From an uncultured Bacilli bacterium (GTDB taxonomy: Bacteria; Bacillota_I; Bacilli_A; RF39; UBA660): a stretch of 64,000 bases of DNA. The DNA lies in contig CAKPKR010000003.1 in assembly GCA_934167465.1 (NCBI GenBank), positions 2,992-66,991 of the forward strand, written 5' to 3'. Under the pieces are notes generated by a model, which saw nothing but the letters and a program-made list of their open reading frames with translations, was not told where the DNA came from and did not search any database. This document shows positions 242 through 62,597 of the stretch, piece after piece. The position numbers were made by a program, and so were the translations under genes. The first letter of the stretch is position 1. Every line of letters begins with the position of its first letter.

Positions 242-249
242 GTGAAAAC

Positions 250-1384: not shown

Positions 1385-1388
1385 TATT

Positions 1389-1832: not shown

Positions 1833-1868
1833 TTTGATAAAAAAATATAATAATTATCAGGGGACATT

Positions 1869-2639: not shown

Positions 2640-2732
2640 TATAAAAATATGTTAAAATGATTAAGTTGTGATCCGCTTTTCATAAAATTAATGATTATGA
2701 TCATATTAAAACAAAAGAAAGGACGTGCGAGA

Positions 2733-3077: not shown

Positions 3078-3117
3078 TCTCTTTTTATTTTTAAATAAAA
3101 GTAGTATAATTAAATAG

Positions 3118-8228: not shown

Positions 8229-8914
8229 AGAAATTATTATATAAAATATTAAGATATTTTAGAGATGAGAATAATATGTTTTTTATTGGTAGTACAGATA
8301 AACTGCCAGAACCACTTTCAAAAGAAGATGAAGTTTATTATGTAACAAAATCTATGGATGGTGATGAATATGCCAGAAGTAAATTAATAGAACATAATTT
8401 AAGATTAGTTGTTTTCTTATCTAAAAAATATGAAAATACAGGAGTTGATTTAGAAGATTTAGTAAGTATTGGAACAATAGGTTTAATAAAAGGTGTAAAT
8501 ACATATAAATTAGATAAAAATATTAAGTTAGCAACTTATGCCTCTCGTTGTATAGATAATGAAATATTAATGTTCTTAAGAAAGAATAAAAAAAGAAGAA
8601 CTGAAATTTCTTTTGAGGATAGTTTGAGTTATGATTCAGAAGGGAATGAATTACATTTAGAAGATATACTTGGAACTGAACCTGATATAGTAACAAAAGG
8701 AATTGAAAAAGAAAATGAAAAAAAATTATTAAGTATGGAAATTAGTAAATTGAATGCTAGAGACAAACAGATAATGACTTTGAGATATGGATTAAATAAT
8801 AATGAAGAAATGACTCAAAAAGATGTGGCAAATGTTTTAGGAATAAGTCAAAGTTATATTTCGAGAATTGAAAAAAAGGTTATTAGAAAATTAAAAGGTT
8901 TGATCAAAATGTAA
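8222..8914 (+). CDS. sigE: sporulation sigma factor SigE (pro-sigma-E)
   Basis: NLRLVVFLSKKYENTGVDLEDLVSIGTIGLIKGVNTY, KLATYASRCIDNEILMFLR and QKDVANVLGISQSYISRIEK match Bacillus SigE almost residue for residue. The gene is adjacent to spoIIGA. Confidence 0.85.
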   Translation: MLKKLLYKILRYFRDENNMFFIGSTDKLPEPLSKEDEVYYVTKSMDGDEYARSKLIEHNLRLVVFLSKKYENTGVDLEDLVSIGTIGLIKGVNTYKLDKNIKLATYASRCIDNEILMFLRKNKKRRTEISFEDSLSYDSEGNELHLEDILGTEPDIVTKGIEKENEKKLLSMEISKLNARDKQIMTLRYGLNNNEEMTQKDVANVLGISQSYISRIEKKVIRKLKGLIKM

Positions 8915-9047
8915 GTAAGTAATTCCTTTTTTTGTATTGTTTTTTTTAATGTTTATAATAATAAAAAGATGTAAATAAAAAAATGATGTCTTGCAATATG
9001 TAATATATTTATTATATAATAAAATAGAAAGGTAGTAGTGAAGTAGT
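8915..9047 (+). promoter_or_regulatory. shared promoter and leader module, copy 1 (TTGCAA-18-TATAAT plus conserved 5' UTR ATAGAAAGGTAGTAGTGAAGTAGT-ATG)
   Basis: A module of about 130 bp recurs almost identically upstream of the genes at 9048, 10055 and 49682. The -35 is at 8991-8996 and the -10 at 9015-9020. Confidence 0.55.
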
Positions 9048-9917
9048 ATGAAAAAAATGTTAAGAAGCAGAATTTTTTTGGTAATAGTAACATTAATAAT
9101 AGGAATAAGTGGAACATTATATGCAGCAAACTCATATAACGCAAATGCTATTGTTTATAATTCAAGTGATGGAACAAGTAAAAATGTAAATGAAGCTTTG
9201 AATGATTTATATACAAAAAGTAAAAAAGAATATTATGTAAATGGATTAGTAGCATATTATAATCCTGTAACAGGATCAAAATGTAAAGTAAGCGAAGCAA
9301 CATCAAATACAAATAGCAAAGGAACATATACAGAGGTAAAAACAGGATGTATGAAATGGTATATTTTTAAAGAAGATTTTGATAATTATACAATGATATT
9401 AGATCACAATACTACTGCAAGAATAAAATGGAATGATAATAATGTAAATGTATCTTATGAAAATAGCAATATTAAAGCCGAAGTAGATAAGTTAGTAAGT
9501 GTCTCAAAATGGAAAAATACTCCTAGATTAATTACAGCAAATGAATTATCCAAAATAACAAATAATTCAACTTTTAATGATTCAGTTGAAAATAATTGGT
9601 ATTTTTTTGATAGTAATAGTCATAATCAAACTGCTACATCAAAGGGTGCAAGCACTTATTCTTGGCTATATGATTATACATCTTCTTGTTCAAGTTGGGG
9701 ATGTAATGTGGAAGATAATAATTATTATACTGGCGTTGGTACATCAGGAACTGGTTATTTTTATGGATATTGGACATCAACAACAAGGGGAACAGCTGGT
9801 GCTGGATATGCTGTTTGGGATGTTTTCCATCATGGTAATTTAGATGGTGGTGATGCTAATTATGATGCACGTGGTATTCGCCCAGTTATAACAATTTCAA
9901 AAACAATATTAAAATAA
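9048..9917 (+). CDS. variable secreted protein family member A0 (conserved N-terminal module plus DUF1566/Lcl-C-like C-terminus)
   Basis: The N-terminal 60 aa are shared with the genes at 32462, 33087, 33715, 41108, 42438, 52511 and 61881. The C-terminus, YWTSTT...AVWDVFHHGNL...ARGIRPV, fits the DUF1566 / FGE-fold ending. Confidence 0.6.
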   Translation: MKKMLRSRIFLVIVTLIIGISGTLYAANSYNANAIVYNSSDGTSKNVNEALNDLYTKSKKEYYVNGLVAYYNPVTGSKCKVSEATSNTNSKGTYTEVKTGCMKWYIFKEDFDNYTMILDHNTTARIKWNDNNVNVSYENSNIKAEVDKLVSVSKWKNTPRLITANELSKITNNSTFNDSVENNWYFFDSNSHNQTATSKGASTYSWLYDYTSSCSSWGCNVEDNNYYTGVGTSGTGYFYGYWTSTTRGTAGAGYAVWDVFHHGNLDGGDANYDARGIRPVITISKTILK

Positions 9918-10054
9918 GGAAGTAATTCCTTTTTTTGTATTCTTTTTCTAATAATAGTTATACTAATAAAAAAAGATGTAAATAAAAAAATATTGTCTTG
10001 CAAAAAGTAATACAATTAATGTATAATTGAATAGAAAGGTAGTAGTGAAGTAGT
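9918..10054 (+). promoter_or_regulatory. shared promoter and leader module, copy 2
   Basis: Same module. TTGCAA is at 9998-10003 and TATAAT at 10022-10027. A small AGGAA-gtaa-TTCCT-T7 terminator lies at its 5' end. Confidence 0.55.
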
Positions 10055-11698
10055 ATGAAAAAAGGATTTACATTAATAGAATTATTGGCAGTAATAGTGA
10101 TATTGGCAGTAATAGCATTAATCGCAACACCAATAATATTAAATGTAATAGAAGAATCAAAAAAGGGAGCCGCTGAACAATCAGTAATCGGATATGTAAA
10201 CGGAATAGAGAATAATGTTTTAGTATCAGAATTGGATAATAGTTCTATAGAAGATGGAAGTTACAATATAAATGAAATAGAAGTAGAAGTAAAAGGAAAT
10301 AAACCTGATAGTGGGAATATAACAATAGAAAAAGGAATAGTAGTAGATGCAGTAATGTGTATGAGTGGATATAAAGTAATATATTCAAATAGTAAAGCGG
10401 AAGTCCAAGGAAAATGTGAAGGAAATCTAGTATATAGTGAAGGTATTTTAAATGGAACAGATCCAGTATTAGGTGAAAATATGATACCAGTAACAATAGA
10501 AAAAGATGGAACAGTAAAATATGCAGATATAAATAAGAAATGGTATAGTTATGGAAATAAAGAATGGGCAAATGCAGTAATATTAAATACAAGTAATAGT
10601 TATAATGTAGGAGATATAATACCAGAAAGTGAAATAGAATCATATTTTGTGTGGATACCAAGATATAGATATAAATTATTTAATGTAGATAATACAAGTA
10701 AAGATTCAAAAACATATACAAATTATAAAGATATACCAAGTAAAGCAGAGGAAATAGAAATAGTATTTGAAAATAAAGAAACAAAAATAAGTAACGGAAA
10801 TAAAAATGGTGAATATTTAATGCATCCAGCTTTTACATCATTTGAAAGTAATGGAATGTGGGTAGGAAAATTTGAAACAGGATATAAAGGAGCAACAACT
10901 ACTTCAACAGCTCAAGTAAACTCAAATGATTCTACAAAAGTAATAGTTAAACCAAACGTTTATAGTTGGAGAAGTATAACAGTAGGAAATATCTTTTTAA
11001 CAAGTTATAATTATAAAAGAGATTTGGATTCACATATGATGAAGAATACCGAATGGGGAGCAGTAGCATATCTTTCACATTCAAAATATGGAATAAATAG
11101 TGAAGTAAGAATAAATAATAATAGTGCACATATAACAGGTTATGCAAAGACTGAACAACCAACTTGTGGTTGGACAAATAGTAATGAAGAATGTAATAAG
11201 TTTGAAAGTACGGCTTTAAATCAAGATGGAACATATACAAAAAGATATAATACCGAAATTGGATATTTAGCAAGTACAACAGGAAATATAACCGGAATCT
11301 ATGATATGAGTGGCGGATCTAATGAATATATGGCAGCCTATATGGCAGGACAACTAGGAAATAGTGGACTAATACCAACCGATTATGATTCAAAATATTT
11401 TAATGTATATAATTCATCAAGTACAGTAACAAGTTATCAATATCGCATCTTAGGAGATGCAACTGGAGAAATGGGACCATTTACAAATTTAAAATCAAGT
11501 GGAAGTGATGGAGACAAAACCTCATATGCATCAAGTTGGTATGCCGACCGTTCGAACTTTGTTGACTCTGGTAGCCCTTGGTTCAACCGAGGCGGCGATT
11601 ACGGCCATGGTGTAGTTGCAGGTCAGTTCAACTTCCTTAGGAGCCCGGGTGGTACTTACAGTTACGTTGGCTTCCGCCTAGTTTTAACACCTCAATAA
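10055..11698 (+). CDS. type IV prepilin-like N-terminus fused to an FGE-sulfatase/DUF1566-like domain protein (paralog B1)
   Basis: MKKGFTLIELLAVIVIL is a class III prepilin signal: G then F, with E at +5. The middle and C-terminal parts, TEWGAVAYL, GIYDMSGGSNEY, RGG...VGFRLV, resemble the FGE-sulfatase fold. Confidence 0.6.
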   Translation: MKKGFTLIELLAVIVILAVIALIATPIILNVIEESKKGAAEQSVIGYVNGIENNVLVSELDNSSIEDGSYNINEIEVEVKGNKPDSGNITIEKGIVVDAVMCMSGYKVIYSNSKAEVQGKCEGNLVYSEGILNGTDPVLGENMIPVTIEKDGTVKYADINKKWYSYGNKEWANAVILNTSNSYNVGDIIPESEIESYFVWIPRYRYKLFNVDNTSKDSKTYTNYKDIPSKAEEIEIVFENKETKISNGNKNGEYLMHPAFTSFESNGMWVGKFETGYKGATTTSTAQVNSNDSTKVIVKPNVYSWRSITVGNIFLTSYNYKRDLDSHMMKNTEWGAVAYLSHSKYGINSEVRINNNSAHITGYAKTEQPTCGWTNSNEECNKFESTALNQDGTYTKRYNTEIGYLASTTGNITGIYDMSGGSNEYMAAYMAGQLGNSGLIPTDYDSKYFNVYNSSSTVTSYQYRILGDATGEMGPFTNLKSSGSDGDKTSYASSWYADRSNFVDSGSPWFNRGGDYGHGVVAGQFNFLRSPGGTYSYVGFRLVLTPQ

Positions 11699-11730: not shown

Positions 11731-11889
11731 ATTTAAAAATTATCAACATTTATTTTTAAATTATATTTAATAAATTTGTCGAAATTTATATGTTAAAAAG
11801 TGAATGAAAAAAAGCAAAAATGTAGTAAAATATAAAGCGATATATTTAATTGGTGTTGGTGCATTCCTCCATTATGAGGAGGTGGTATT

Positions 11890-11967
11890 ATGTCTAAAAG
11901 AGAAATTTCCTTTTTCATTATAATACTTCTATTATTTTTTATAATAATTACTTTATTATATAGATAA
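11890..11967 (+). CDS. 25-aa hydrophobic peptide MSKREISFFIIILLLFFIIITLLYR (candidate type I toxin)
   Basis: A strong Shine-Dalgarno sequence, GGAGGTGG, lies inside a CCTCC...GGAGG hairpin. The ORF is conserved in three copies. Confidence 0.5.
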   Translation: MSKREISFFIIILLLFFIIITLLYR

Positions 11968-12082
11968 TAAAATAAGCACTATCACAGGGGGTAGTGCTTT
12001 CTAAATACAATTTGGAATGTATCTAACTCTATCAACAATTAGATATATCCTTTTTTTATTGTATGAGTAATAACTCATCTAT
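11968..12082 (-). ncRNA. predicted antisense sRNA (candidate antitoxin)
   Basis: A minus-strand promoter, TTGAAA-17-TAATAT, is at 12115-12087. The transcript would terminate at the hairpin AGCACTATC...GTAGTGCT plus a T-run, reading in the minus orientation. Confidence 0.4.
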
Positions 12083-12220
12083 ATACATATTAACATTTTT
12101 AAAATATTTTTTCAATAATATTTTAAAATAATTTATAAATGAAATTTTTTATAATTTAATAAGAAATATTGATATATGTTTTTCATCCATTTTATGGTAA
12201 AATAATAATTGGTGGTAAGA

Positions 12221-20634: not shown

Positions 20635-22914
20635 ATGTTTGCAAATTTTGAAGAGGAGTCACGAGTAATATTAGTAGCCGCAAAAAAAGAAATGCAAGAA
20701 CTAAAACATCCTTATATTGGAAGTGAACATATGCTACTTGCAATCTTAAATAATGATAATGATGTTTCAAAAAAATTAAAAGAATATAATATAGATTATA
20801 AAGGCTTTAAAAAAGAAGTAATAAATATAGTAGGTATTGGTGCAAAAGAAAATGACCTTTTTTTATATACTCCATTACTTAAAAGGGTAATAGAAAATGC
20901 CATAATTGATAGTAAAGAATTTAATTCTGGAGAAGTTTCTATAAGTAATTTATTTGCTAGTTTATTAGAAGAAGGTGAGGGTGTAGCCCTTAGAATTTTA
21001 CTTAGTATGAATGTTGATTTAGATGAATTATATAGTGAATTTAATTATAATTTAACGACAAAAAAGAAGAAAAAAAATAAAAAACTTATAATTGAAGAAA
21101 TGGGTGAAAACTTAGTAGAAAAAGCTTCTTATTTAGATCCTGTGATTGGAAGAGAAAAAGAAGTAAAAAGATTAATTGAAATTTTATCAAGAAGAACTAA
21201 AAATAATCCTATTCTAATAGGAAATGCAGGAGTAGGTAAAACAGCAATTGTTGAAGAACTTTCTAGAATGATTGCGAATAATACTGTACCTATAAACTTA
21301 AGAAATAAAAAAATAATAAGCTTAGATATGGCTAGTACTGTAGCTGGAACAAAATATCGAGGTGAATTTGAAGAAAGATTAAAAAAAATCATTAAAGAAG
21401 TTGAAGATAATGATGATATAATCTTATTTATTGATGAAATTCATACATTAGTAGGTGCTGGCGGAGCAGAAGGAGCTATTGATGCATCTAATATTTTTAA
21501 ACCCGCTTTAGCGCGTAATAAACTAAGATGTATTGGAGCTACAACAATTGATGAATATAAAAAGTATATTGAACAAGATAGTGCTTTAGAAAGAAGATTT
21601 CAAAAAATTATAATTAATGAACCAAATAAAAATGAAGTGAAAAATATTTTAAACAACATTAAGCCTATATATGAAAAATATCATAATGTAATAATATCTA
21701 ATGAAATAATTGATATGATTGTTGATTTAACAAGTAAATATATATTTGGAAGATTTGAACCTGATAGATCAATTGATATTTTAGATGAAGTATGTGCGAA
21801 GGTAAGTTTGAAAGAAAATAAGAATTTAAAAAAATATTTAAATCTTAAAAAAGAATATGAAAAAATTAACAATGAAAAACATAAGGCTATCATTAATAAT
21901 GAATATAATAAAGCTTTAGAAATAAAAGATTATGAAAATAATGTTATTGATAAAATAAATAAAATGGAATTAAAACTATATGAAAAAAACAGTAATAATG
22001 TTGAAAAAATAGATGTTGCTGAGGTAATTGCTGCTAAATCTAATATGCCAATATATGAGGTAATAAAAGATGATAAGAAGATTATTAAAGAATTAGAAAA
22101 GAGTCTAAATAATGGAATTATTGGTCAAGATAATGCTTTAAGAGAAGTAATGAAAATAGCTAAAAAAATAAAATTAGGTTATACTGATAATAAGTGTTAT
22201 TCAATGTTATTTGTAGGGCCATCAGGAGTTGGTAAAACTCTTTTAGCTAATATGTTTGGTAAAAATATGAATATGAATGTTATTAAATTGGATATGTCAG
22301 AATATATAGAAGAACATAGTGTTAGTAAAATAATAGGTTCGCCTCCAGGATATGTTGGATATAAAGAATCAAATACTATTTTAGATGAAATAAGAGATAA
22401 TCCTAATACACTATTGATTTTAGATGAAATTGAAAAAGCTCATCCGAATGTAATAAATTTATTTCTCCAAGTTTTAGATGATGGGAAATTAAAAGATAGT
22501 ACTGGTAAGATAGTTCGTTTTGATAATTCAATTATAATAATGACTTCTAATGTTGGAATATATGATAATAATATGGGCTTTGTTTTAAACAAAGAAAATA
22601 TGACAAAATTAAAGGATTCTTTTTCACCACAATTTATAAATAGGATAAATAATATTATATATTTTAATAAATTAAATGAAGAGGCAATTTCTAAAATAGT
22701 TGATATAAAATTAAATGAAATTAAAAATAAATACGAAATTAAATTAAATAAAAATATTAAAAATGAAGTAATAGAATTATCTGACTTTAAAGAATTTGGC
22801 GCTAGAAAAATAGAAAAAATTATTAAAGATAGATTAGAAAATCAAATTATCGACAAATTAATTATGAATGAATTTCCAAATATTACTACCTTAAAAGAAG
22901 AAAGTATTGTTTAA
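20635..22914 (+). CDS. clpC: ClpC-like AAA+ chaperone ATPase
   Basis: Clp_N repeats, two Walker A boxes (GNAGVGKTA and GPSGVGKT), and the ClpB D2-small domain are present. Confidence 0.7.
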   Translation: MFANFEEESRVILVAAKKEMQELKHPYIGSEHMLLAILNNDNDVSKKLKEYNIDYKGFKKEVINIVGIGAKENDLFLYTPLLKRVIENAIIDSKEFNSGEVSISNLFASLLEEGEGVALRILLSMNVDLDELYSEFNYNLTTKKKKKNKKLIIEEMGENLVEKASYLDPVIGREKEVKRLIEILSRRTKNNPILIGNAGVGKTAIVEELSRMIANNTVPINLRNKKIISLDMASTVAGTKYRGEFEERLKKIIKEVEDNDDIILFIDEIHTLVGAGGAEGAIDASNIFKPALARNKLRCIGATTIDEYKKYIEQDSALERRFQKIIINEPNKNEVKNILNNIKPIYEKYHNVIISNEIIDMIVDLTSKYIFGRFEPDRSIDILDEVCAKVSLKENKNLKKYLNLKKEYEKINNEKHKAIINNEYNKALEIKDYENNVIDKINKMELKLYEKNSNNVEKIDVAEVIAAKSNMPIYEVIKDDKKIIKELEKSLNNGIIGQDNALREVMKIAKKIKLGYTDNKCYSMLFVGPSGVGKTLLANMFGKNMNMNVIKLDMSEYIEEHSVSKIIGSPPGYVGYKESNTILDEIRDNPNTLLILDEIEKAHPNVINLFLQVLDDGKLKDSTGKIVRFDNSIIIMTSNVGIYDNNMGFVLNKENMTKLKDSFSPQFINRINNIIYFNKLNEEAISKIVDIKLNEIKNKYEIKLNKNIKNEVIELSDFKEFGARKIEKIIKDRLENQIIDKLIMNEFPNITTLKEESIV

Positions 22915-23045
22915 ATAATACTTTTTTTTGTCGGAATTTGTATGTTAAAAAATGGATAAACAAAAACTAAAATGTAGTAGAATATAAAGCGATATATTTA
23001 ATTGGTGTTAGTGCATTCCTTCTAGAATAAGAAGGCGGTGATATT

Positions 23046-23123
23046 ATGACAAAAAGAGAAATATCTTTATTTTTAATAATAATTCTATTATTTGTTATAA
23101 TTTTTATTTTATTATATAAATAA
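23046..23123 (+). CDS. 25-aa hydrophobic peptide MTKREISLFLIIILLFVIIFILLYK (candidate type I toxin)
   Basis: The Shine-Dalgarno sequence AGAAGGCGGTG is sequestered in the hairpin CCTTCT-agaata-AGAAGG. Confidence 0.5.
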   Translation: MTKREISLFLIIILLFVIIFILLYK

Positions 23124-23236
23124 AAAAATGCACTATCACAGGGGGATAGTACTAACTAAAAAACCATTTAGGAATGTATCTAATTTTTAGAACAATTAGA
23201 TATATCCTTTTTTAATTATATGGGCATTACTTATCT
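23122..23236 (-). ncRNA. predicted antisense sRNA (candidate antitoxin)
   Basis: The minus-strand promoter has TTGAAA at 23271-23266, a 17-nt spacer and TATTAT at 23248-23243. A terminator hairpin at 23130-23152 is followed by an A-run on the plus strand. Confidence 0.4.
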
Positions 23237-23336
23237 ATATACATAATAACATTTTAAAAATATTTTTTCAATAATTTTATGTAATTTACGAATATAAACA
23301 AAATAGACTTTTTAACAAAAATTTGATACAATTTTA

Positions 23337-32333: not shown

Positions 32334-32407
32334 AAAAACTCCTTTCTTTAATAAAATAACTCAACTTCATAATTATATACTTTTTTTTAAAATTTGACAA
32401 GTTCACC

Positions 32408-32438
32408 TTGACAAAAACGTCTGGGGGGGGGGTATGAT
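32408..32438 (+). promoter_or_regulatory. poly-G promoter of A1: TTGACA, spacer with G10 at 32423-32432, TATGAT
   Basis: The spacer is 19 nt. The homopolymer lies exactly between the -35 and the -10. Confidence 0.7.
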
Positions 32439-32461
32439 ATTGATAGAAAGTAGGAATCTAG

Positions 32462-32917
32462 ATGAAAAAAGTAATAAAAAATAGAATGTTTTTGGTGATT
32501 ATAATAACTATCATAGTTACTAGTGTAAGTGTATATGCCGCAACCACATATAAAGCAACAGATGTAATATATAAAGCAAGTGATGGAACAAGTATGAATG
32601 TAAATGATGCTTTAAATGAATTATATAATAAAAGTAATAATACAGGATATCCTGATATTAAAATTTATTATGATTCAGGTTGGGGTGGTGGTACTTGTCA
32701 AGCATTTGCTAATTTTAATATACCTAAAGGGTATAATTATTTAGAAGTAATACCACCATATGTTAGTTCTGAACATAGTTCATCTATGGAAGGAAAAATA
32801 ATTTCTCTTAATCAAAAGATTAATGTTTCGGAAAAAGATAGTGTACGAGTAAATGTATATAATGAAGCTACTAGTGGAGCTTGTAGAGCAAATGGTACTA
32901 TTGTACTTAGTCATTAA
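32462..32917 (+). CDS. variable secreted protein family member A1
   Basis: The conserved N-terminus MKKVIKNRMFLVII...YAATTYKATDVIYKASDGTSMNVNDALNELYNK is followed by a variable C-terminus. Confidence 0.65.
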   Translation: MKKVIKNRMFLVIIITIIVTSVSVYAATTYKATDVIYKASDGTSMNVNDALNELYNKSNNTGYPDIKIYYDSGWGGGTCQAFANFNIPKGYNYLEVIPPYVSSEHSSSMEGKIISLNQKINVSEKDSVRVNVYNEATSGACRANGTIVLSH

Positions 32918-32924
32918 TTTTATA

Positions 32925-32975
32925 ACTATATTTCAATTATTATTATTATTATGAATAAAGGTTTTTAGAACCTTT
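32925..32975 (+). terminator. terminator after A1
   Basis: AAAGGTTtttagAACCTTT is followed by a T-run. An (ATT)5 microsatellite lies just upstream. Confidence 0.5.
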
Positions 32976-33032
32976 TTAAATTTTATTATTATTTTTTATA
33001 TAAAGTTTTTTTCACAATTTTTTGAAAATTTC

Positions 33033-33063
33033 TTGACTTTTACGTCTGGGGGGGGGGTATGAT
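33033..33063 (+). promoter_or_regulatory. poly-G promoter of A2: TTGACT, spacer with G10 at 33048-33057, TATGAT
   Basis: The spacer is 19 nt. Confidence 0.7.
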
Positions 33064-33086
33064 ATATCTAGAAAGTAGGAATCTAG

Positions 33087-33551
33087 ATGAAAAAAATAAT
33101 GAAAAGTAGAATATTTTTAGTAATTATAATAACTATCATAGTTGCTAGCGTAAGTGTATATGCCGCAACCACATATAAAGCAACAGATGTAATATATAAA
33201 GCAAGTGATGGAACAAGTATGAATGTAAATGATGCTTTAAATGAATTATATAATAAAAGTAATAATACAGGATATCCTGATATTACAATGTATCTTGATT
33301 CAGGTTATGTAGCAGCAGCTAATTGTGCAACCTCTGTTACTATTGATATACCTGATGGTTATAATTATTTAACTGTAACAACTACTGGTAATGTTTCACA
33401 AACTAAGATAGCAATGGATAGCACATATGTTACTTCTGGAGAGAAATATGATGTTTCAGAGAAAAATAGTATATTAATAAAAATTATACATTATAAAAAT
33501 TCTAGTGGTACGTATTCTAGAGCAATGGGAACTATTGTACTCAGTCATTAA
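33087..33551 (+). CDS. variable secreted protein family member A2
   Basis: A tandem paralog of A1 and A3. Confidence 0.65.
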   Translation: MKKIMKSRIFLVIIITIIVASVSVYAATTYKATDVIYKASDGTSMNVNDALNELYNKSNNTGYPDITMYLDSGYVAAANCATSVTIDIPDGYNYLTVTTTGNVSQTKIAMDSTYVTSGEKYDVSEKNSILIKIIHYKNSSGTYSRAMGTIVLSH

Positions 33552-33661
33552 TTTTTAGCTATATTTCAATTATTATTATTATGAATAAAGGTTTCTAGAA
33601 CCTTTTTAAATTTTATTATTACTTTTTATAAAATTTTTTTTTATAAATTTTTGAAAATTTC

Positions 33662-33691
33662 TTGACTTTTACGTCTGGGGGGGGGTATGAT
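33662..33691 (+). promoter_or_regulatory. poly-G promoter of A3: TTGACT, spacer with G9 at 33677-33685, TATGAT
   Basis: The spacer is 18 nt. Confidence 0.7.
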
Positions 33692-33714
33692 ATATCTAGA
33701 AAGTAGGAATCTAG

Positions 33715-34173
33715 ATGAAAAAAGTAATAAAAAATAGAATGTTTTTGGTGATTATAATAACTATCATAGTTACTAGTGTAAGTGTATATGCCGCAACCAC
33801 ATATAAAGCAACAGATGTAATATATAAAGCAAGTGATGGAACAAGTATGAATGTAAATGATGCTTTAAATGAATTATATAATAAAAGTAATAATACAGGA
33901 TATCCTAATATTACAATGTACCTTGATTCAGGTTATGTAGCAGCAGCTAATTGTTCTGATTCCATTACTATTGATATACCTGATGGGTATAATTATTTAA
34001 CTGTAACAATTAATTATCCATCTATTGATACAATAAAGATGGATGGAACAATTATTACTTCTGGAGAAAAATATAATGTTTCTGAAAAAGAAAAAGTATT
34101 AATAAGTGTATCACAAATAAATACGGGTGGAACTTATGTTAGAGCAAAAGGAACTATTGTTCTTACTCGTTAA
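33715..34173 (+). CDS. variable secreted protein family member A3
   Basis: A tandem paralog. Its C-terminus is GTIVLTR. Confidence 0.65.
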   Translation: MKKVIKNRMFLVIIITIIVTSVSVYAATTYKATDVIYKASDGTSMNVNDALNELYNKSNNTGYPNITMYLDSGYVAAANCSDSITIDIPDGYNYLTVTINYPSIDTIKMDGTIITSGEKYNVSEKEKVLISVSQINTGGTYVRAKGTIVLTR

Positions 34174-34352
34174 TTTTCTTCTAATTTTAGTATTAAATAA
34201 TAACTGATAGTTTTTAAAAATTTTGATTACCATTATAATGTGTTTACTAATTGCATTTTTAATAAACGATAAATTAATTATTATAAGAAATAAAGGTTTA
34301 TGAACCTTTTTTTTATAAAAAAAATATAGTATAATTAATAAAGGTGATTAAA

Positions 34353-40115: not shown

Positions 40116-40574
40116 ATGGAAAAATTTAGCCGTACAATGAGAGGATACGATCCAGAGGAAGTTAATAACTTTTTGGATAAAGTAATTAACCAAGTTGAAA
40201 CAATGGTTAATGAAATGAATGAAAAAGATAAAAAAATTAAAGAATTACAATCTTTTGAAATTGAAAATAAGGCTTTAAAAGAAAAACTTCTTCAATATGA
40301 ACGTATGGAAGGAACACTTAATAAAGCAATAATAATGGCTGAAAAAACAAGTGAGCAAATTAAAGTTAATGCTCATAATGAAGCTGAAACTATTTTAGAA
40401 GATGCCAAAAGAAACGCTAACAGAATTGTTAATGAAGCATTACTTAGAGCCGAAAAAGCTGAAAATGAAGCAAATTTATTAAGAAGAAATACTACTATAT
40501 TTAAAAAAAGAGTAAAAGAAATAGTTGATGCTCAATCTGAAATGGTAGATGAATTAGATAAAATAGAATTATAA
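40116..40574 (+). CDS. divIVA: DivIVA-domain protein
   Basis: FSRTMRGYDPEEVNNFLDKV is the DivIVA N-terminal motif. A coiled coil is present. Confidence 0.75.
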   Translation: MEKFSRTMRGYDPEEVNNFLDKVINQVETMVNEMNEKDKKIKELQSFEIENKALKEKLLQYERMEGTLNKAIIMAEKTSEQIKVNAHNEAETILEDAKRNANRIVNEALLRAEKAENEANLLRRNTTIFKKRVKEIVDAQSEMVDELDKIEL

Positions 40575-40775
40575 TTCTATTTTTTTTTATATATTAGGAA
40601 AGTGCTTCCAAATTTTAAAAAAAAATATATGTTCTATTAAAAAAACTTTCTAAATTTTTGTCAGAATTTGTATGTAAAAAAAAAGATGAAAATAATAAAA
40701 AATATAGTAGAATATAAATCGATATATTTAATTGGTGTTAGTGCATTCCTTCTAGAATAAGAAGGTGGTGATTTT

Positions 40776-40853
40776 ATGACAAAAAGAGAAATATCTTTAT
40801 TCTTAATAATAATTCTATTATTTGTTATAATTTTTACTTTATTATATAAATAA
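40776..40853 (+). CDS. 25-aa hydrophobic peptide MTKREISLFLIIILLFVIIFTLLYK (candidate type I toxin)
   Basis: The Shine-Dalgarno sequence AGAAGGTGGTG lies in the hairpin CCTTCT-agaata-AGAAGG. Confidence 0.5.
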   Translation: MTKREISLFLIIILLFVIIFTLLYK

Positions 40854-40967
40854 AAAAATTGCACTATCACAGGGGGGATAGTGCATTCGCAAAACAAATT
40901 AGGAATGTATCTAACTCTTTAGACAATTAGATATATCCTTTTTTATTGTATGAGCAATAACTCATCT
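40854..40967 (-). ncRNA. predicted antisense sRNA (candidate antitoxin)
   Basis: The minus-strand promoter has TTGAAA at 41002-40997, a 17-nt spacer and TACTAT at 40979-40974. It terminates at the hairpin GCACTATC-acaggggg-GATAGTGC at 40861-40884. Confidence 0.4.
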
Positions 40968-41053
40968 GTATACATAGTAACATTTTAAAAATATTTTTTC
41001 AATAATATTATAAAATAAATTGCAAAATTTTAAAACGCGAACAAAATTTCTGC

Positions 41054-41083
41054 TTGACTTTTACGTCTGGGGGGGGGTATGAT
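41054..41083 (+). promoter_or_regulatory. poly-G promoter of A4: TTGACT, spacer with G9 at 41069-41077, TATGAT
   Basis: The spacer is 18 nt. The conserved upstream box is ACGCGAACAAAATTTCTGC. Confidence 0.7.
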
Positions 41084-41107
41084 AGTATTGGAAAGTAGGA
41101 ATTTATA

Positions 41108-41992
41108 ATGAAAAAAATAATGAAAAGCAGAATATTTTTAGTAATAATTACAATGATTATATGTATAAGTGGAACTTTATATGCAGCGGTCACATATAAA
41201 GCAACAGATGTAGTATATAATGCCAATGATGGAACAAGTAAAAATGTAAGTGAGGCTTTAAATGAATTGTATGAAAATTGTTCTATTACAAAAATATATC
41301 CAAAAGTAACAATAACTACAGAAGCAGATACTGTTATAGGCCAGACAGTAATTGCAACATTAATCAAAGATAAAGATGGAAATTCTCCTAAAGAAGAATA
41401 TGTAGTGAAGGGTACATTAACTAATAGTACAACTTTAGTGTTAAAAAAAATAGGAACTTATAAAATTACAGCAAGTTCTTCTGATGGATTAGAAAATTAT
41501 AGCGATGAAATAACTGTTCAATACGATAATGTATATAATATTAATTATACTGTAAAAAAATATCTTTTTAATAATAGTGATGTAACTGCAGTAACTGGAG
41601 GTTGGGGAGTGATGTGGGAGGCATCTGGTGGTACACCTGGAGCTTCAACGTCTGGTGGTACTGTTAATTCGACATTGTATTTAACTTCTGGATCATCGGG
41701 TAAAAAAGATATGTATGCGAAAAATTCAATTGATTTAACAGGATGGAAAAGAATTGTTATAGTATGTACATATTATAATAATTTAAATAATGGATGGGCA
41801 GGACTTCATTTATATCAACCTGGAGGTTATTGGAGTAAAGATGCTAAATTAGTTGTTGGAGATTTAGGAGCTTTTTCAGTTGGAACATTTACTTATGATA
41901 TTTCTAGTTCTAAATACCAAAAAGAAGTTAGATTTGCATTATTAGCGGCTAGAGTTGAATGGAAAATATCTAAAATATATTTAGAAAAATAA
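41108..41992 (+). CDS. variable secreted protein family member A4 (294 aa)
   Basis: The family N-terminus is followed by a long unique C-terminal region. Confidence 0.65.
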   Translation: MKKIMKSRIFLVIITMIICISGTLYAAVTYKATDVVYNANDGTSKNVSEALNELYENCSITKIYPKVTITTEADTVIGQTVIATLIKDKDGNSPKEEYVVKGTLTNSTTLVLKKIGTYKITASSSDGLENYSDEITVQYDNVYNINYTVKKYLFNNSDVTAVTGGWGVMWEASGGTPGASTSGGTVNSTLYLTSGSSGKKDMYAKNSIDLTGWKRIVIVCTYYNNLNNGWAGLHLYQPGGYWSKDAKLVVGDLGAFSVGTFTYDISSSKYQKEVRFALLAARVEWKISKIYLEK

Positions 41993-42384: not shown

Positions 42385-42414
42385 TTGATTTTTACGCCTG
42401 GGGGGGGGTATAAT
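42385..42414 (+). promoter_or_regulatory. poly-G promoter of A5: TTGATT, spacer with G9 at 42400-42408, TATAAT
   Basis: The spacer is 18 nt. It has the same upstream box as A4 and A7. Confidence 0.7.
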
Positions 42415-42437: not shown

Positions 42438-42926
42438 ATGAAAAAAATAATAAAAAGCAGAATATTTTTAGTAATAATTACAATGATTATATGTATAAGT
42501 GGAACATTATATGCCGCATCAACATACAAAGCAAGTGATGTAGTATATAACGCAAGTGATGGTACATCAACCAATGTTGAAAGTGCTTTAAATGATTTAT
42601 ATAATAAAACAAAAGAATATAGTAATAATTTTTTTCCATTTAATGTAAATTATGTATATAATAATTATATTGGTTCAACAAATAAAATAACATTTACTAC
42701 TACAATAGAAACAGGAAATATAGATATAACAAAATATAAAATAGTTGGTGGAACAACAAGAGTAGAACCATGGCTAAATACTCAAGGAAAATATATTGAT
42801 ACAACAAGTTCAATAATTAGTTGCAAAGAAGGTATTACGACTATAGAAATAACAGTAACAATTGATGCGGCATCTAGTCTAGCAGGACCCGTTAACTATA
42901 GCGGTGCAATATATAGAATTGAATAA
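42438..42926 (+). CDS. variable secreted protein family member A5 (162 aa)
   Basis: The family N-terminus is present. Confidence 0.65.
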   Translation: MKKIIKSRIFLVIITMIICISGTLYAASTYKASDVVYNASDGTSTNVESALNDLYNKTKEYSNNFFPFNVNYVYNNYIGSTNKITFTTTIETGNIDITKYKIVGGTTRVEPWLNTQGKYIDTTSSIISCKEGITTIEITVTIDAASSLAGPVNYSGAIYRIE

Positions 42927-49544: not shown

Positions 49545-49681
49545 TAGTTTTGACTACTTTTTTCTGTATTGTTTTTTTTATAATGTTTATAATAATAAAA
49601 AGATGTAAATAAGAAAATATTGTCTTGCAATACGTAATACGTTTATTATATAATAAGATAGAAAGGTAGTAGTGAAGTAGT
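49545..49681 (+). promoter_or_regulatory. shared promoter and leader module, copy 3
   Basis: A terminator, AGTAGT-tttg-ACTACT-T6, is followed by TTGCAA at 49625-49630, an 18-nt spacer, TATAAT at 49649-49654, and the 5' UTR identical to the copies at 9024 and 10031. Confidence 0.55.
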
Positions 49682-51328
49682 ATGAAAAAACAAGGATTTA
49701 CACTTATTGAGTTGTTAGCAGTTATCGTAATATTAGCTGTGATAGCTTTAATCGCAACACCAATAATCTTAAATGTAATTGAAGATTCAAAAAAGGGAGC
49801 AGCCGAACAATCAGTAATCGGATATATAAATGGAATAGAAAATAGTGTATTAGTATCAGAATTAGATAATAATTCATTAGATGATGGAAGTTATAATATA
49901 AATGAATTAAATGTCGAAGTAAAAGGAAATAAACCAAGTAGTGGTAATGTAACATTAGAAAATGGAATAGTAGTAGATGCTGTAATTTGTATGAATGGAT
50001 ATAGAATAAATTATGCAAATAGTAAAGCTGAAGTCCAAGGAAAATGTGATGAAGCATTAGTATATAGTGAAGGTATTTTAAATGGAACAGATCCCGTATT
50101 AGGTGACAATATGATACCAGTCACAATTGAAAAAGATGGAACAGTAAAGTATGCTGATATAAACAAAAAATGGTATAGTTATAGAAATAAAGAATGGGCA
50201 AATGCAGTAATATTAAATACAAGTAATACTTACAAAGTAGGAGATATAATACCAGAAAGTGAAATTGAATCATATTTTGTATGGATACCTAGATATAAAT
50301 ATAAATTATTTAATGTAGATAATACAAGTAAAGATTCAAAGACATATACAATATATACAGATGTACCAAGTAAAGCAGAGGAAATAGAAATAATATTTGA
50401 AAATAAAGAAACAAAAGAAAGTATAGGAACAAAGAATGGAGAATATTTAACCCACCCAGCCTTCACATCATTTGAAAGTAATGGAATGTGGGTAGGAAAG
50501 TTTGAAACAGGCTATAAAGGAGCAACTTCAACTACTTCAGCTCAAGTAAATAGTAATGATTTAAGTAAAGTAATAGTTAAACCTAATGTATATAGTTGGC
50601 GAAATATAACTATAAATAATATATTCTTAACAAGTTATAATTATAAAAGAAATTTAGATTCACATATGATGAAGAATACCGAATGGGGAGCAGTAGCATA
50701 CCTATCACATTCAAAATATGGAATTAATAATGATATAAGAATAAATAATAATAGTGCATATATAACAGGATATGCCAAGACAGAACAACCAACATGTGGA
50801 TATACAAATAGCAATGAAAATTGTAATAGATTTGAAAGTACATCATTAAATCAAGATGGGACATATACCAAGAGATATAATACGGAAATAGGCTATTTAG
50901 CTAGTACAACCGGAAATATTACGGGAATCTATGATATGAGTGGTGGGTCACATGAATATGTAGCAGCATATATGGCAGGAAACTTAGGAAGTAGTGGAAT
51001 AACACCAACCGATTATGATTCAAAATACTTTAATGTATATAATGCATCAAGTACACAAACAAGTTATCAATATCGAATTTTAGGAGATGCAACTGGCGAA
51101 ATGGGACCATTTACAAATTTAAAATCAACTGGGAGCAATGGTGTTAAGACAGCATATGTTTCAAGTTGGTACGCTTCCGACGCGAATTTCGTTGACTCTT
51201 CTTACCCTTGGTTCATTCGTGGCATCCATTTCATCGGTGGTGTACTTGCAGGTCAGTTCAACTTCGCTAGGAACACAGGAACTAATAATGGTTATATTGG
51301 TTTCCGTTTAGTTTTAACACCACAATAA
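49682..51328 (+). CDS. type IV prepilin-like N-terminus fused to an FGE-sulfatase/DUF1566-like domain protein (paralog B2)
   Basis: MKKQGFTLIELLAVIVIL is a prepilin signal. The protein is collinear with B1 throughout. The last 150 nt are GC-rich. Confidence 0.6.
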   Translation: MKKQGFTLIELLAVIVILAVIALIATPIILNVIEDSKKGAAEQSVIGYINGIENSVLVSELDNNSLDDGSYNINELNVEVKGNKPSSGNVTLENGIVVDAVICMNGYRINYANSKAEVQGKCDEALVYSEGILNGTDPVLGDNMIPVTIEKDGTVKYADINKKWYSYRNKEWANAVILNTSNTYKVGDIIPESEIESYFVWIPRYKYKLFNVDNTSKDSKTYTIYTDVPSKAEEIEIIFENKETKESIGTKNGEYLTHPAFTSFESNGMWVGKFETGYKGATSTTSAQVNSNDLSKVIVKPNVYSWRNITINNIFLTSYNYKRNLDSHMMKNTEWGAVAYLSHSKYGINNDIRINNNSAYITGYAKTEQPTCGYTNSNENCNRFESTSLNQDGTYTKRYNTEIGYLASTTGNITGIYDMSGGSHEYVAAYMAGNLGSSGITPTDYDSKYFNVYNASSTQTSYQYRILGDATGEMGPFTNLKSTGSNGVKTAYVSSWYASDANFVDSSYPWFIRGIHFIGGVLAGQFNFARNTGTNNGYIGFRLVLTPQ

Positions 51329-51508: not shown

Positions 51509-52381
51509 ATGCTTATGCAAATAGAAAAAAATACATTCTATACTTGTAAATATGATAGACCATTCAAAGAAATATTTTTAAATGAACAAAATAAACATTT
51601 ATTAAAAGGATTATTAGAAACAATACTAAAAACAGAAATTGATAAAATAGAACTAAAGCCAAGCGAATTAAATAGTAATAATATAAATATAAAAAGAAAA
51701 TATTTAGATGCATTAATATATGTAAAAGGTAAAAAAATAGGAATAGAAGTAAATTCAAATGCTGAAGAAAATTATTTAAGACCAAGAAATGCATCATTTA
51801 TATTTAATATATATTCATCACATACATTAGTAAGTGAAACATATGATGAAAAAACCGATATAATTCAAATTAATTTATCATATAACTTAAAAGATAAAAA
51901 GAATATAAGAATATATAAATTAAGAGATGAAGAAGGAAAAGAATATATTGAAAATTTATATATTTACGAAATAAATATGGATTACTATAGGAAACTATGG
52001 TACAATAAAAAAGAAGAAGTAAAAGAAGCAAAATATCTAGTAATGTTAGATTTAGAAGAAAAAGAATTAAAGGAATTTGCAAAAAACGATAGAGAGGTGA
52101 ATGAATATATGGAAAAATTGGAGAATTTAAATAGTAATCCAGAATTTTACCAATATATGACACACGAAGAAGATGAAAGAAAGATACACAACTCTATGAT
52201 GTATGAAGCAGAGCAAAAAGGTCTAGAAAAAGGTATAGAACAAGGTTTAGAACAAGGAATTGAAGAAGGAAAAAATGCCGAAAAAATAGCTACAGCGACA
52301 AACTTTAAAAATCTTGGCATAGATATTGAAACTATATCAAAAGCAACTGGTCTATCAAAAGAAGAAATAGAAAAATTATAA
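51509..52381 (+). CDS. Rpn/YhgA-family PD-(D/E)XK recombination-promoting nuclease (putative transposase)
   Basis: The N-terminus YDRPFKEIFLNEQNKH...DALIYVKGKKIGIEV is present. The characteristic C-terminal tail has KGLEKGIEQGLEQGIEEG repeats plus IATATNFKNLGIDIETISKATGLSKEEIEKL. Confidence 0.6.
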   Translation: MLMQIEKNTFYTCKYDRPFKEIFLNEQNKHLLKGLLETILKTEIDKIELKPSELNSNNINIKRKYLDALIYVKGKKIGIEVNSNAEENYLRPRNASFIFNIYSSHTLVSETYDEKTDIIQINLSYNLKDKKNIRIYKLRDEEGKEYIENLYIYEINMDYYRKLWYNKKEEVKEAKYLVMLDLEEKELKEFAKNDREVNEYMEKLENLNSNPEFYQYMTHEEDERKIHNSMMYEAEQKGLEKGIEQGLEQGIEEGKNAEKIATATNFKNLGIDIETISKATGLSKEEIEKL

Positions 52382-52455: not shown

Positions 52456-52487
52456 TTGACTTTTACGTCTGGGGGGGGGGGTATGAT
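52456..52487 (+). promoter_or_regulatory. poly-G promoter of A6: TTGACT, spacer with G11 at 52471-52481, TATGAT
   Basis: The spacer is 20 nt. This is the longest tract in the window. Confidence 0.7.
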
Positions 52488-52510: not shown

Positions 52511-53122
52511 ATGAAAAAAGTAATAAAAAGTAGAATATTTTTAGTAATAATTACGATGATTATATGTATAAGCGGAACATTATATGCAGCTAATACATAT
52601 AAAGCATCAGATGTAGTATATAATACCAGTGATGGAACAAGTAAAAATGTAAGTGAAGTCTTAAACGAGTTATATGATAAATCAAATAACAATTCTGATT
52701 TAGAATTAATATATGATGCAATGGTTTCTAAAGGAGTAACACCATCTAGTAAAAAGATAGATGATATTATAATGGCAATCAAAACAAAGATGGGAGTTTC
52801 AACTCATATAGCATCTGTTAGATTTGCAAATAGAGCCACTAATAGTTCTTCATATACAAGGGGTAGAATGTATTTATATGACTCTAGTGGGACAGTACTA
52901 TCATCTAGTTGGGCAGAAGGATCAGGAGAATCAACAATTTATGGTGAGGATGTTAGAGTCAGTTCTGGTACAATTTTATATGCTGGTTTTTCATCAGCAT
53001 CTGATAAAAATACAAGAGGAATATTGCAGCTTGTTGTTGATGGAAATGTGGTAACATCTGTATTTGTTGAAACAAGCAAAGGAACGTCAAATACTAATAA
53101 AATTACAGTTTTGGATTCTTAA
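52511..53122 (+). CDS. variable secreted protein family member A6 (203 aa)
   Basis: The family N-terminus is present. Confidence 0.65.
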   Translation: MKKVIKSRIFLVIITMIICISGTLYAANTYKASDVVYNTSDGTSKNVSEVLNELYDKSNNNSDLELIYDAMVSKGVTPSSKKIDDIIMAIKTKMGVSTHIASVRFANRATNSSSYTRGRMYLYDSSGTVLSSSWAEGSGESTIYGEDVRVSSGTILYAGFSSASDKNTRGILQLVVDGNVVTSVFVETSKGTSNTNKITVLDS

Positions 53123-61383: not shown

Positions 61384-61437
61384 ATTATGAAATTTTTACA
61401 AAATTATCAAGAATTATTTTGTTTTTGTTCTAAATAA

Positions 61438-61790
61438 TATGTCGGAATTCGTATGTAAAAAATTAGATAAGAAAAATTAAAAATATGGTAGAATATTAAT
61501 CGATATATTTAATTGGTGTTAGTGCATTCCTTCTATAATAAGAAGGAGAGGTGGTCGTTATGAAAGAAAGAGAAAAACTCTATTCTTAATAATCTTCCTA
61601 CTATTATTTATAGTAATTATATTACTTTATAAATAAAAAAATGCACTATCACAGGGGGATAGTGCTTTCAAAACTTTTGGAATGTATCTAACTCTGAACA
61701 ATTAGATATATCCTTTTTTATTGTATGAGTAATAACTCATCTATATACATAGTAACATTTTAAAAAAATTTTTCAATAATATTATAAAAT
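61438..61790. repeat. type I toxin-antitoxin-like repeat, copy 4, with a disrupted peptide frame
   Basis: It has the same unit structure. The ATG at 61560 gives only MKEREKLYS before a stop. The LIIFLLLFIVIILLYK tail is in another frame. Confidence 0.65.
61560..61636 (+). pseudogene. frameshifted remnant of the 25-aa peptide gene
   Basis: See the repeat feature above. The hairpins and the antisense promoter, TTGAAA at 61776-61771, are retained. Confidence 0.5.
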
Positions 61791-61827
61791 AAATTGCAAG
61801 AATTTAAAACGCGAACAAAATTTCTGC

Positions 61828-61858
61828 TTGATTTTTACGCCTGGGGGGGGGGTATAAT
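61828..61858 (+). promoter_or_regulatory. poly-G promoter of A7: TTGATT, spacer with G10 at 61843-61852, TATAAT
   Basis: The spacer is 19 nt. It has the same upstream box, ACGCGAACAAAATTTCTGC. Confidence 0.7.
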
Positions 61859-61880: not shown

Positions 61881-62597
61881 ATGAAAAAAATAATAAAAAA
61901 TAAAATAATTTTAATAGTAATATTATGTATAATAAGTTGTGGTATAGGAGTATATGCTGCAACAACATATAAAGCAAGTGATATAGTATATAACGCAAGT
62001 GACGGAACAAGTATAAATGTAAATGATGCTTTAAATGATATTTATACAATCAAAACACAAGGTAATGCAACAGAAAATGATATTTTGAATGGAAAAACAG
62101 CTGTCGTAAAAGGAAAAATGATAACTGGTACATTTAAAAATAATTTTACCTTTGAAACAATAGAAAACCCGGTTGGTACATCTATTATGGATTATAATGA
62201 GAAAAGAAAAGATAAATATTTGACTTTTACACTAGGTGAAAGGTTAAGTTACAATGATACTAATTATTCTGATTATATGTGTTATATTTATCCTATAGAT
62301 TTAACTAATGTTTCAACACTCATCTTGTATCAATGGAATTATATATCGATGCATTTTACAGTAGCAATTTCATTATTTGATACTCCATTATATTCTAGGC
62401 AAGAAATAATAGATAATGCATTTGCAACGTGGACATATTCGACATCAGGTAGTAAAAAGGCATCTAATTACAATATTAAAGAAATTGATGTAAGAAATGT
62501 AACTGGTAAGAAGTATATCAATATTGCAGTTGTTAGTAAGAATAATTCTTCTGATGAATATTATATGCTTACTAAAAATATAATATCGTTTAATTAA
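61881..62597 (+). CDS. variable secreted protein family member A7 (238 aa)
   Basis: It is the most diverged family N-terminus: MKKIIKNKIILIVIL...YAATTYKASDIVYNASDGTSINVNDALNDIY. Confidence 0.6.
   Translation: MKKIIKNKIILIVILCIISCGIGVYAATTYKASDIVYNASDGTSINVNDALNDIYTIKTQGNATENDILNGKTAVVKGKMITGTFKNNFTFETIENPVGTSIMDYNEKRKDKYLTFTLGERLSYNDTNYSDYMCYIYPIDLTNVSTLILYQWNYISMHFTVAISLFDTPLYSRQEIIDNAFATWTYSTSGSKKASNYNIKEIDVRNVTGKKYINIAVVSKNNSSDEYYMLTKNIISFN

Follow-up and report, generated by a model that had tools for sequence, protein, structure and literature searches.

The 64,000-nucleotide (nt) window analysed here, from contig CAKPKR010000003.1 of an uncultured Bacilli bacterium, carries at the junction between rnj and ffh a tandem array of three related genes, A1, A2 and A3, each with a promoter in which an uninterrupted run of guanines (Gn, where n is its length) lies between the -35 and -10 hexamers, an arrangement that makes them candidates for phase variation. 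In the promoter of A1 (32408..32438, + strand, as are all the features given below), the -35 hexamer TTGACA (32408-32413) is followed by a fixed part of 9 nt (32414-32422), a G10 tract (32423-32432) and the -10 hexamer TATGAT (32433-32438), for a total spacer of 19 nt, and the gene (32462..32917) encodes a protein of 151 amino acids (aa) with a signal anchor, a conserved stalk and a variable C-terminal domain. The promoter of A2 (33033..33063) has TTGACT (33033-33038), 9 nt, G10 (33048-33057) and TATGAT (33058-33063), again with a spacer of 19 nt, and precedes a family member of 154 aa (33087..33551). A third such promoter (33662..33691), with TTGACT (33662-33667), 9 nt, G9 (33677-33685), TATGAT (33686-33691) and a spacer of 18 nt, was the only one among A1-A3 to be picked up by a standard promoter scan (16-18 nt), and belongs to A3, which encodes a protein of 152 aa (33715..34173) placed in the family by the shared N-terminus. 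The original prediction, made from the letters of this DNA, had located the G10, G10 and G9 tracts at these positions, described the layout TTGAC(A/T), 9 nt, Gn, TATGAT with spacers of 19, 19 and 18 nt, and attributed to A1-A3 a length of about 150 aa with a near-identical N-terminus of 60 residues; direct reading of the sequence bears out all of this, with an overall identity between the proteins of 62-77%. It had also given each gene its own terminator, and here the picture is mixed. Hairpins are present, but those in the A1-A2 gap (32957..32975, AAAGGUUU/GAACCUUU and then a U-rich run; -5.7 kcal/mol, z = -0.4) and in the A2-A3 gap (33587..33605, with a U-run; -6.9 kcal/mol, z = -0.9) are weak and no better than shuffled sequence, whereas a stronger, terminator-like hairpin with U8 between A3 and ffh (34281..34318; -9.7 kcal/mol, z = -3.0) stands out; a standard terminator scan called none of the three.

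The tandem array of three is real, but as a description of the system it proved too narrow, since the window holds seven G9-G11 tracts and the family is dispersed and lineage-wide. All seven tracts share one module, consisting of TTGA(C/T)N, 9 nt, Gn, TAT(G/A)AT, a leader of 22-24 nt and ATG, and the genes behind all of them begin with the same N-terminus. Beyond the array, these are gene B (41108..41992, 294 aa), whose promoter (41054..41083) has TTGACT, 9 nt, G9 (41069-41077), TATGAT and a spacer of 18 nt; gene C (42438..42926, 162 aa), with TTGATT, 9 nt, G9 (42400-42408), TATAAT and a spacer of 18 nt in its promoter (42385..42414); gene D (52511..53122, 203 aa), with TTGACT, 9 nt, G11 (52471-52481), TATGAT and a spacer of 20 nt (promoter 52456..52487); and gene E (61881..62597, 238 aa), which is wedged between parE and parC and has TTGATT, 9 nt, G10 (61843-61852), TATAAT and a spacer of 19 nt (promoter 61828..61858). 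An eighth member (9048..9917, 289 aa), found by a hidden Markov model (HMM) match to its N-terminus and lying directly upstream of a type IV pilin-like gene, has no G tract and offers an internal comparison: its promoter (8991..9020) consists of TTGCAA (8991-8996), a spacer of 18 nt and TATAAT (9015-9020). What the copies have in common is a conserved cassette reaching from some 60 bases before the tract to roughly codon 57, with an A/T-rich sequence at its upstream end (in the dispersed copies, CGAACAAAATTTCTGC) and a leader that holds AGGAAT as ribosome-binding site. The window has a G+C content of 23-27%, and the claim that such long G-homopolymers are improbable by chance held up well: 19 matches to G8, all in the seven tracts and on the + strand, were observed, against a mean of 0.12 in dinucleotide-preserving shuffles of the window.

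Promoter geometry and the protein family

Among all loci fetched for comparison, which come from independent metagenome assemblies (L-numbers denote contigs or loci compared with the window, and P-numbers family proteins), we counted 68 family genes, 58 of them with a complete upstream region and representing 24 distinct proteins. The G tract was present in 58/58 of these complete promoters. The -35 box was TTGACT in 28, TTGACA in 18, TTGATT in 11 and TTAACA in one, the -10 box TATGAT in 47 and TATAAT in 11, and the fixed part measured 9 nt in 55 and 8 nt in the remaining three, all from one gene. Tract length was centered on G10 (38 promoters), with fewer at G9 (11), G11 (6), G6, G8 and G12 (one each), so that the total spacer ranged from 15 to 21 nt with a mode of 19. 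The tract directly abutted the -10 hexamer in every census promoter, and the leader was 22-24 nt long. An extra G8 copy was found at the end of contig L010. The two hexamers would form each gene's own promoter of the housekeeping-sigma type; alternative sigma-factor promoters (SigE, SigK, SigF, SigG and SigH) were compared by eye and none fits. Transcription starting within the tract (reiterative transcription) was rejected for the window family, in which there is no -10-like hexamer upstream of the tract and no C-run after it, and a single-tract G-quadruplex is implausible for one G10 run.

The same geometry recurs in a distantly related organism. A distant subfamily, scoring 38-55 bits against the N-terminal HMM, was found in the metagenome-assembled genome (MAG) GCA_015059485.1 and in matching JGI and ENA contigs, from an organism with Era, YbeY and YqfD proteins that are 61%, 50% and 36% identical, respectively, to those of the window species. 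At three loci in this organism, TTGACA-agtacacct-G10/11-TAAAAT precedes distant family members, so that the hexamers, the 9-nt distance, the tract of about ten guanines and AGGAAT are kept across both organisms, with the intervening bases diverged. A geometry that is kept while the sequence diverges is the usual signature of a selected, functional promoter design, and, in a genome of about 25% G+C, it is difficult to square with a G run that is neutral or an artefact. In roughly 1 Mb of sequence around ffh from 80 related species, no tract of at least G7 was found apart from two in L023, both upstream of family-like genes.

Two departures from the common layout were also observed. The tracts of L023 (MAG CAKPGR01, with Ffh 86% identical) are a G9 at 51-59 and a G10 at 9037-9046, upstream of related genes, one of which encodes a Gp10_C domain, and their layout is TTGACT, 24 nt, Gn, TA(T/C)AAA, CCC(C)TC and T6-7; transcription may start within the G run here, giving a leader with a G/C hairpin and a U-run, or the layout may be that of a -10 box lacking a -35. 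The promoter upstream of P0223 in L131-L135, from bovine rumen and other metagenomes, has decayed to TTGGCA-agttct-G6-tag-TAAAAT with a spacer of 15 nt, and appears to be a locked, non-variable copy.

The proteins behind the tracts are united by their N-terminus and by little else. This region of 57 residues, a signal anchor followed by a conserved stalk, is common to the genes behind all seven window tracts and reads MKK.IK.R, then 17-18 hydrophobic residues ending in VYA-A, then a stalk of about 30 residues with the motif TYKA(T/S)DV.Y.A.DGTS.NV..ALN.LY; beyond about codon 57, the window family proteins are unrelated to one another. An AlphaFold 2 (AF2) model of A2 places a transmembrane helix at residues 2-28, a hairpin at 36-46, a helix at 47-58 and a beta-sandwich at 66-153, and in the AF2 model of gene E (from an alignment of 104 sequences), which gave a better N-terminal module, the block means of the predicted local distance difference test were 65-84 over residues 21-60, with values below 50 in the C-terminal domain. 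By reading of the family sequences, neither an LPXTG motif nor a lipobox was found; the signal regions end in ...SVSVYA-ATTYK or ...ISGTLYA-A, and the cysteine of some members (MIICISG) has isoleucine at -1, which is not a lipobox context. The type IV pilin methylation motif (G/FTLIE) was likewise not found in the family N-terminus; it occurs in the neighbouring genes 10055-11698 and 49682-51328. The products may be secreted or displayed at the cell surface, with the signal region either cleaved off or retained as a membrane anchor. Searches with Pfam, PHROG and NCBIfam against the window proteins returned sub-threshold noise only (such as Wzz, CUB_2, Phage_spike_2 and halocin), while the N-terminal module, which the original prediction had proposed to trace through databases by HMM, turned out to be widespread: a profile of the first 62 residues matched 1,223 cluster representatives (50% identity) at E <= 1e-3 and 113 at E <= 1e-10, and in the 150 best hits listed the match was always at the extreme N-terminus of proteins of 56-368 aa, mostly 130-300 aa. 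Pfam matches among the 113 members were sporadic (H-type lectin, BclA_C, a glycine-rich domain and an ephrin-receptor-like domain), and one L023 relative has a Gp10_C tail-fibre tip domain (E = 2e-22) as well as matches to PHROG tail-fibre families. Because of these sporadic lectin, BclA_C, glycine-rich and Gp10_C domains, the C-terminal heads look like exchangeable extracellular binding domains.

Tract-length variation and recombination

Tract length differed in 6 of the 10 genes that were present in at least two samples: in the window and other samples, lengths of 10 or 11 were found for gene D and P0087, 9 or 10 for gene B, P0016 and P0094, and 9, 10 or 11 for gene C. These differences, of 1-2 G between orthologous tracts, stand out against flanking sequence that is otherwise identical, as seen in pairwise comparisons of assembled consensus sequences in which gap counts were matched to tract-length differences. 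The window and L100 align over 3989 nt with 0 mismatches and tracts of 11 versus 10, and the window and L110 over 2768 nt, also with 0 mismatches, and tracts of 9,9 versus 10,10. L100 and L102 (3928 nt) and L101 and L103 (3916 nt) each have 0 mismatches and tracts of 10 versus 11, and in the second organism, where L127 and L129 align over 12313 nt with 0 mismatches, the sole gap is G10 versus G11. As a control from the same contigs, A/T runs of at least 7 were variable at 3/100 sites (and those of 9-10 at 1/9 sites), compared with 4/7 for the G tracts, and the G6 tract of P0223 was identical in 5/5 samples with upstream sequence. Combinations of alleles at several loci recurred in unrelated studies, with both L108 and L111 carrying 9,11 and both L004 and L006 carrying 10,12, which argues that the differences are heritable alleles and against random consensus error. 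At the level of consensus sequences, the G tracts are shown to be hypermutable relative to substitutions and to other homopolymers; together with the conserved -35, 9 nt, Gn, -10 geometry, this upholds both sequence-testable parts of the earlier proposal of a slipped-strand phase-variation candidate.

Contigs L006, L010, L013, L014 and L106 end or are mis-joined at the tracts. Such breaks are suggestive in that they fit length heterogeneity, and they are equally explained by the cassette being a repeat. In L010 (OGPT01014073.1), high-GC foreign DNA (1-3300) is joined exactly at the G tract to a family promoter (3306-3366), probably a chimeric assembly.

Recombination has left its own marks on the family. 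In L003 (sample ERZ4559632), the rnj-ffh locus has two genes instead of three, and the second matches A2 at 100% identity in the terminator, the promoter and the conserved 5' coding part, then A3, likewise at 100%, over the remainder, a chimera that reads directly as an unequal crossover inside the shared cassette. The copy number at rnj-ffh differs between strains. Comparison of 90 family proteins revealed 12 pairs that share 93% or more identity in the N-terminus while their C-termini are unrelated, and 20 pairs in which the C-termini are 80% or more similar although N-terminal identity is below 75%; the family alignment displays the same mosaicism of N- and C-terminal parts. Chimera and mosaic halves together point to recombination as a further process acting on the shared 5' cassette. 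A gene of the PD-(D/E)XK nuclease/transposase family (PF12784, Rpn-like; 51509-52381) lies immediately upstream of gene D, similar genes occur in L099 and L128, and genes near family members at other loci have weak HTH_Rpn_C matches; a role of Rpn-like genes in cassette recombination is possible.

Proposed mechanism, alternatives and precedents

The explanation that we consider probable is that the genes are contingency loci controlled by promoter poly-G tracts and dispersed as a multigene family, on which recombination acts as well. Slipped-strand mispairing at replication would gain or lose a G, altering the distance and the rotational phasing between the -35 and -10 hexamers, and each family gene would drift independently between higher and lower transcription, so that a clonal population would come to consist of cells displaying differing combinations of family members. 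As a second layer, homologous recombination at the cassette would delete or duplicate units and move a promoter and stalk onto another head. Tract length would be expected to alter transcription because porA, vlp and tp0126 behave in this way, and the selective agent may be host immunoglobulin A (IgA), phage or niche variation. The optimal spacer between -35 and -10 hexamers is 17-18 nt, and if this textbook rule applies, activity in the window would be highest for A3, B and C (18 nt), lower for A1, A2 and E (19 nt) and lowest for D (20 nt).

Several observations weigh against this explanation. The modal G10 corresponds to a 19-nt spacer in both organisms, longer than the optimum, which leaves two readings: in the majority population most copies are low or OFF, or expression does not follow the simple spacer rule. 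Where the fixed part is 8 nt, in one gene, the tract remains G10-11, which hints that mutational dynamics, and not the total spacer, may set tract length, and the G9-10 tracts of L023 do not sit between a -35 and a -10 although they lie upstream of related genes. In the vpma genes, a promoter T-tract was shown not to drive switching (PMC2268961), so a homopolymer adjacent to the -10 is by itself insufficient. Errors in the consensus of Illumina assemblies with low coverage (3-8x) could account for some of the length differences, and the recurrence of alleles across hosts implies that switching is not fast enough to erase strain signatures. Finally, both switching within a population and its effect on transcription are argued from assembled sequence and from precedent.

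Part of this evidence also fits phase variation of another kind, in which the G tract at the -10 would act through promoter melting, DNA geometry or a tract-length-dependent regulator instead of spacer length. The direct contact of tract and -10 hexamer in every promoter, the modal 19-nt spacer, the persistence of a G10 mode behind the 8-nt fixed part and the retention in L023 of Gn directly before TA(T/C)AAA, with no -35 at the equivalent distance, all favor it, and comparable effects have been suggested for opc, whose poly-C spans the -35, and for tprL, whose poly-G covers part of the -10 (PMC7864442). Yet the TTGAC box and the exact 9 nt to the tract are kept in 55/58 promoters, which is hard to explain if the -35/-10 distance is irrelevant, and the same spacing occurs in the diverged organism with a different spacer sequence; on balance, we regard this mode of action as unlikely. 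A different emphasis would make recombination the functional variation, with the cassette as its homology block and the G tract hitch-hiking or mutationally maintained with little effect on expression. The exact A2/A3 chimera of L003 with its crossover inside the cassette, the 12 and 20 mosaic pairs, the strain-dependent copy number at rnj-ffh and the Rpn-like nuclease gene adjoining gene D can all be cited for it, but it leaves unexplained why every copy carries about G10, fixed between the hexamers, at about 25% G+C and across deeply diverged organisms, when decay, of the kind that the G6 version apparently underwent, would be the expected fate of a neutral G10. Recombination and slippage are moreover not mutually exclusive, and as a replacement for slippage we find recombination more doubtful still.

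Least credible of all, and very improbable in our judgement, is that the tract is a fixed cis-element whose variation in length is an artefact of sequencing or assembly at G-homopolymers. Many contigs do have low coverage (3-8x, going by their names), and the five contigs named above break or are mis-joined at a tract. Against this stand the unique, conserved sequence that flanks the tracts on both sides in assemblies from several unrelated projects and assemblers, the identical multi-locus allele combinations in independent samples, a range from G6 to G12 in which G6 is invariant in five samples, and the low variability (1/9 sites) of A/T runs of 9-10. An origin of the family in phages was a further candidate and was rejected, as neither the promoter nor the N-terminal module turned up in 2.9 million viral contigs. 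The family does resemble phage tail-fibre and receptor-binding proteins in joining a conserved N-terminal part to swappable C-terminal binding domains, but it differs from phage tail fibres in its N-terminal signal anchor and in the location of its genes among housekeeping genes.

Phase variation by promoter homopolymers, as proposed here for the family, is textbook knowledge for a few pathogens, namely Neisseria, Haemophilus, mycoplasmas and Treponema. In porA of Neisseria meningitidis, a poly-G tract lies between the -35 and -10, and 11G gives high expression, 10G about 2-fold lower and 9G 13-fold lower (PMC3639595). As in porA, a G tract of 9-11 sits inside the spacer of a sigma-70-type promoter of a secreted or surface protein gene; porA, by contrast, is a single gene of a Gram-negative pathogen with an optimum at a 17-nt spacer, whereas here there are many genes per genome, a modal spacer of 19 nt, unrelated proteins and an uncultured commensal of Gram-positive type. 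The Treponema pallidum tpr genes and tp0126 have promoter poly-G tracts of 7-11 that vary within isolates, and in tp0126, where the tract occupies the -35/-10 spacer, a total length of 17 nt is optimal (PMC7864442). These genes, too, are paralogues for putative surface proteins individually under promoter poly-G, but in a spirochaete with about 53% G+C (which makes G tracts less improbable), with tract positions that vary among genes and with outer-membrane beta-barrels as products.

The vlp genes of mycoplasmas combine a conserved 5' region (promoter and signal peptide) with divergent C-terminal regions and are expressed combinatorially; the Vlps are lipoproteins with a poly-A tract and tandem-repeat C-termini, clustered at one locus. 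In Mycoplasma hyorhinis they form, as here, a multigene family with its own promoter for each gene and a homopolymer in the -35/-10 spacer, and spacer indels switch transcription of vlp, maa2 (M. arthritidis) and vmm (M. mycoides) ON and OFF (PMC2268961). Both hosts are phylogenetic neighbours within the Bacilli. Unlike Vlp, the window family has no lipobox, a poly-G tract, globular C-terminal domains and genes dispersed between housekeeping genes; no tandem repeats were found in the family coding regions, except for a weak AT-rich match in A2 (33462-33500; period 17, 2.4 copies, score 48), and no sequence homology to Vlp was detected in the Pfam and NCBIfam searches. In its multigene layout and conserved 5' cassette, the family nonetheless most resembles Vlp, though its proteins belong to none of the families of these known systems.

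Host lineage, genomic setting and meaning

The Ffh protein of the window is at most 89% identical to that of any GTDB species representative; the window species is not among them, and the exact promoter pattern gave 0 matches in the GTDB species representatives. The nearest Ffh proteins come from MAGs labelled as uncultured Bacilli, Erysipelotrichaceae, Tenericutes, Mycoplasmatota, Clostridium sp. CAG:710 and Candidatus Faecisoma, names that point to the uncultured orders interspersed with Mycoplasmatales; judged by these relatives, it belongs to an uncultured Bacilli lineage related to Mycoplasmatales, and is not a classical clostridium. Some of these orders keep sporulation genes and peptidoglycan, and two are without sortases (PMC10868615). 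Sporulation genes (yabP, yqfD, spoIIR, spoIID and spo0A) lie near family members, and proteins identical to those of the window occurred exclusively in gut metagenomes assembled from Hadza and other human cohorts.

In 25 of 26 related species that hold both rnj and ffh (L030-L092), the two genes are 228 bp to 6.7 kb apart; L087, the 26th, has an rnj-like match of only 32% identity and a different arrangement. From this variation in distance, the junction that carries A1-A3 is evidently a variable insertion spot in the lineage. Elsewhere in the window, a repeat of about 370 bp occurs in four copies of 80-89% identity on the + strand (11751-12134, 22905-23280, 40655-41021 and 61395-61795), two of which immediately precede the family promoters of B and E. 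Its elements are a promoter-like region, a leader with a hairpin (CCTTCTAGAATAAGAAGG) overlapping the ribosome-binding site GAAGGAGG, a hydrophobic open reading frame of 25 codons (MTKREISLFLIIILLFVIIFTLLYK) and two terminator-like hairpins, and it looks like a module for a type I toxin or a small membrane peptide. Rfam gave zero matches at the gathering threshold over the whole window and none at E <= 1 over 40570-41120, so the leader is not a known RNA element. The two neighbouring genes with the pilin motif (10055-11698 and 49682-51328) are paralogues of 547-548 aa with 86% DNA identity, each combining a type IV pilin N-terminal methylation motif (N_methyl) with a large uncharacterised C-terminal part, and the tract-less eighth member lies directly before one of them, while its promoter region shares 92% identity with the sequence that precedes the other (regions 8912-9056, 9915-10063 and 49559-49690).

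A literature search found no description of a promoter-homopolymer switch in gut commensals, uncultured lineages or spore-forming Firmicutes, and the phase variation that it found in clostridia and Clostridioides is DNA inversion. The original prediction had stated that such systems were not known from spore-forming Firmicutes; the search agrees, with the proviso that the host is not a classical clostridium. For the family and the lineage, we found no earlier description, while the type of mechanism is already known. Tentatively, and with less confidence than we place in the contingency loci themselves, one may go further and see in the module an old, lineage-wide switch of uncultured, Mycoplasmatales-related gut Bacilli, kept across organisms whose housekeeping proteins share only 36-61% identity and governing a very large family of 'stalk plus exchangeable head' secreted proteins (1,223 clusters) that, together with recombination, would make up their main surface-variation system. 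On that reading, it would be the first promoter-slippage system with many genes in Firmicutes that have a wall and form spores, and promoter-homopolymer switching in the style of the mycoplasmas would seem to be older than the loss of the cell wall.

Taken together, an unannotated family in a common uncultured lineage of the human and animal gut bears the full genomic signature of phase variation, and the prediction can be tested from existing metagenomic reads and metatranscriptomes, with no need for culture. If it is true, it carries a warning that strain-level analyses and assemblies break or are mis-joined at these loci, as seen in L010, L013 and L014. It would also provide a handle on surface variation in reduced-genome, sortase-poor Bacilli and mark the family as a likely target of host IgA or phage.

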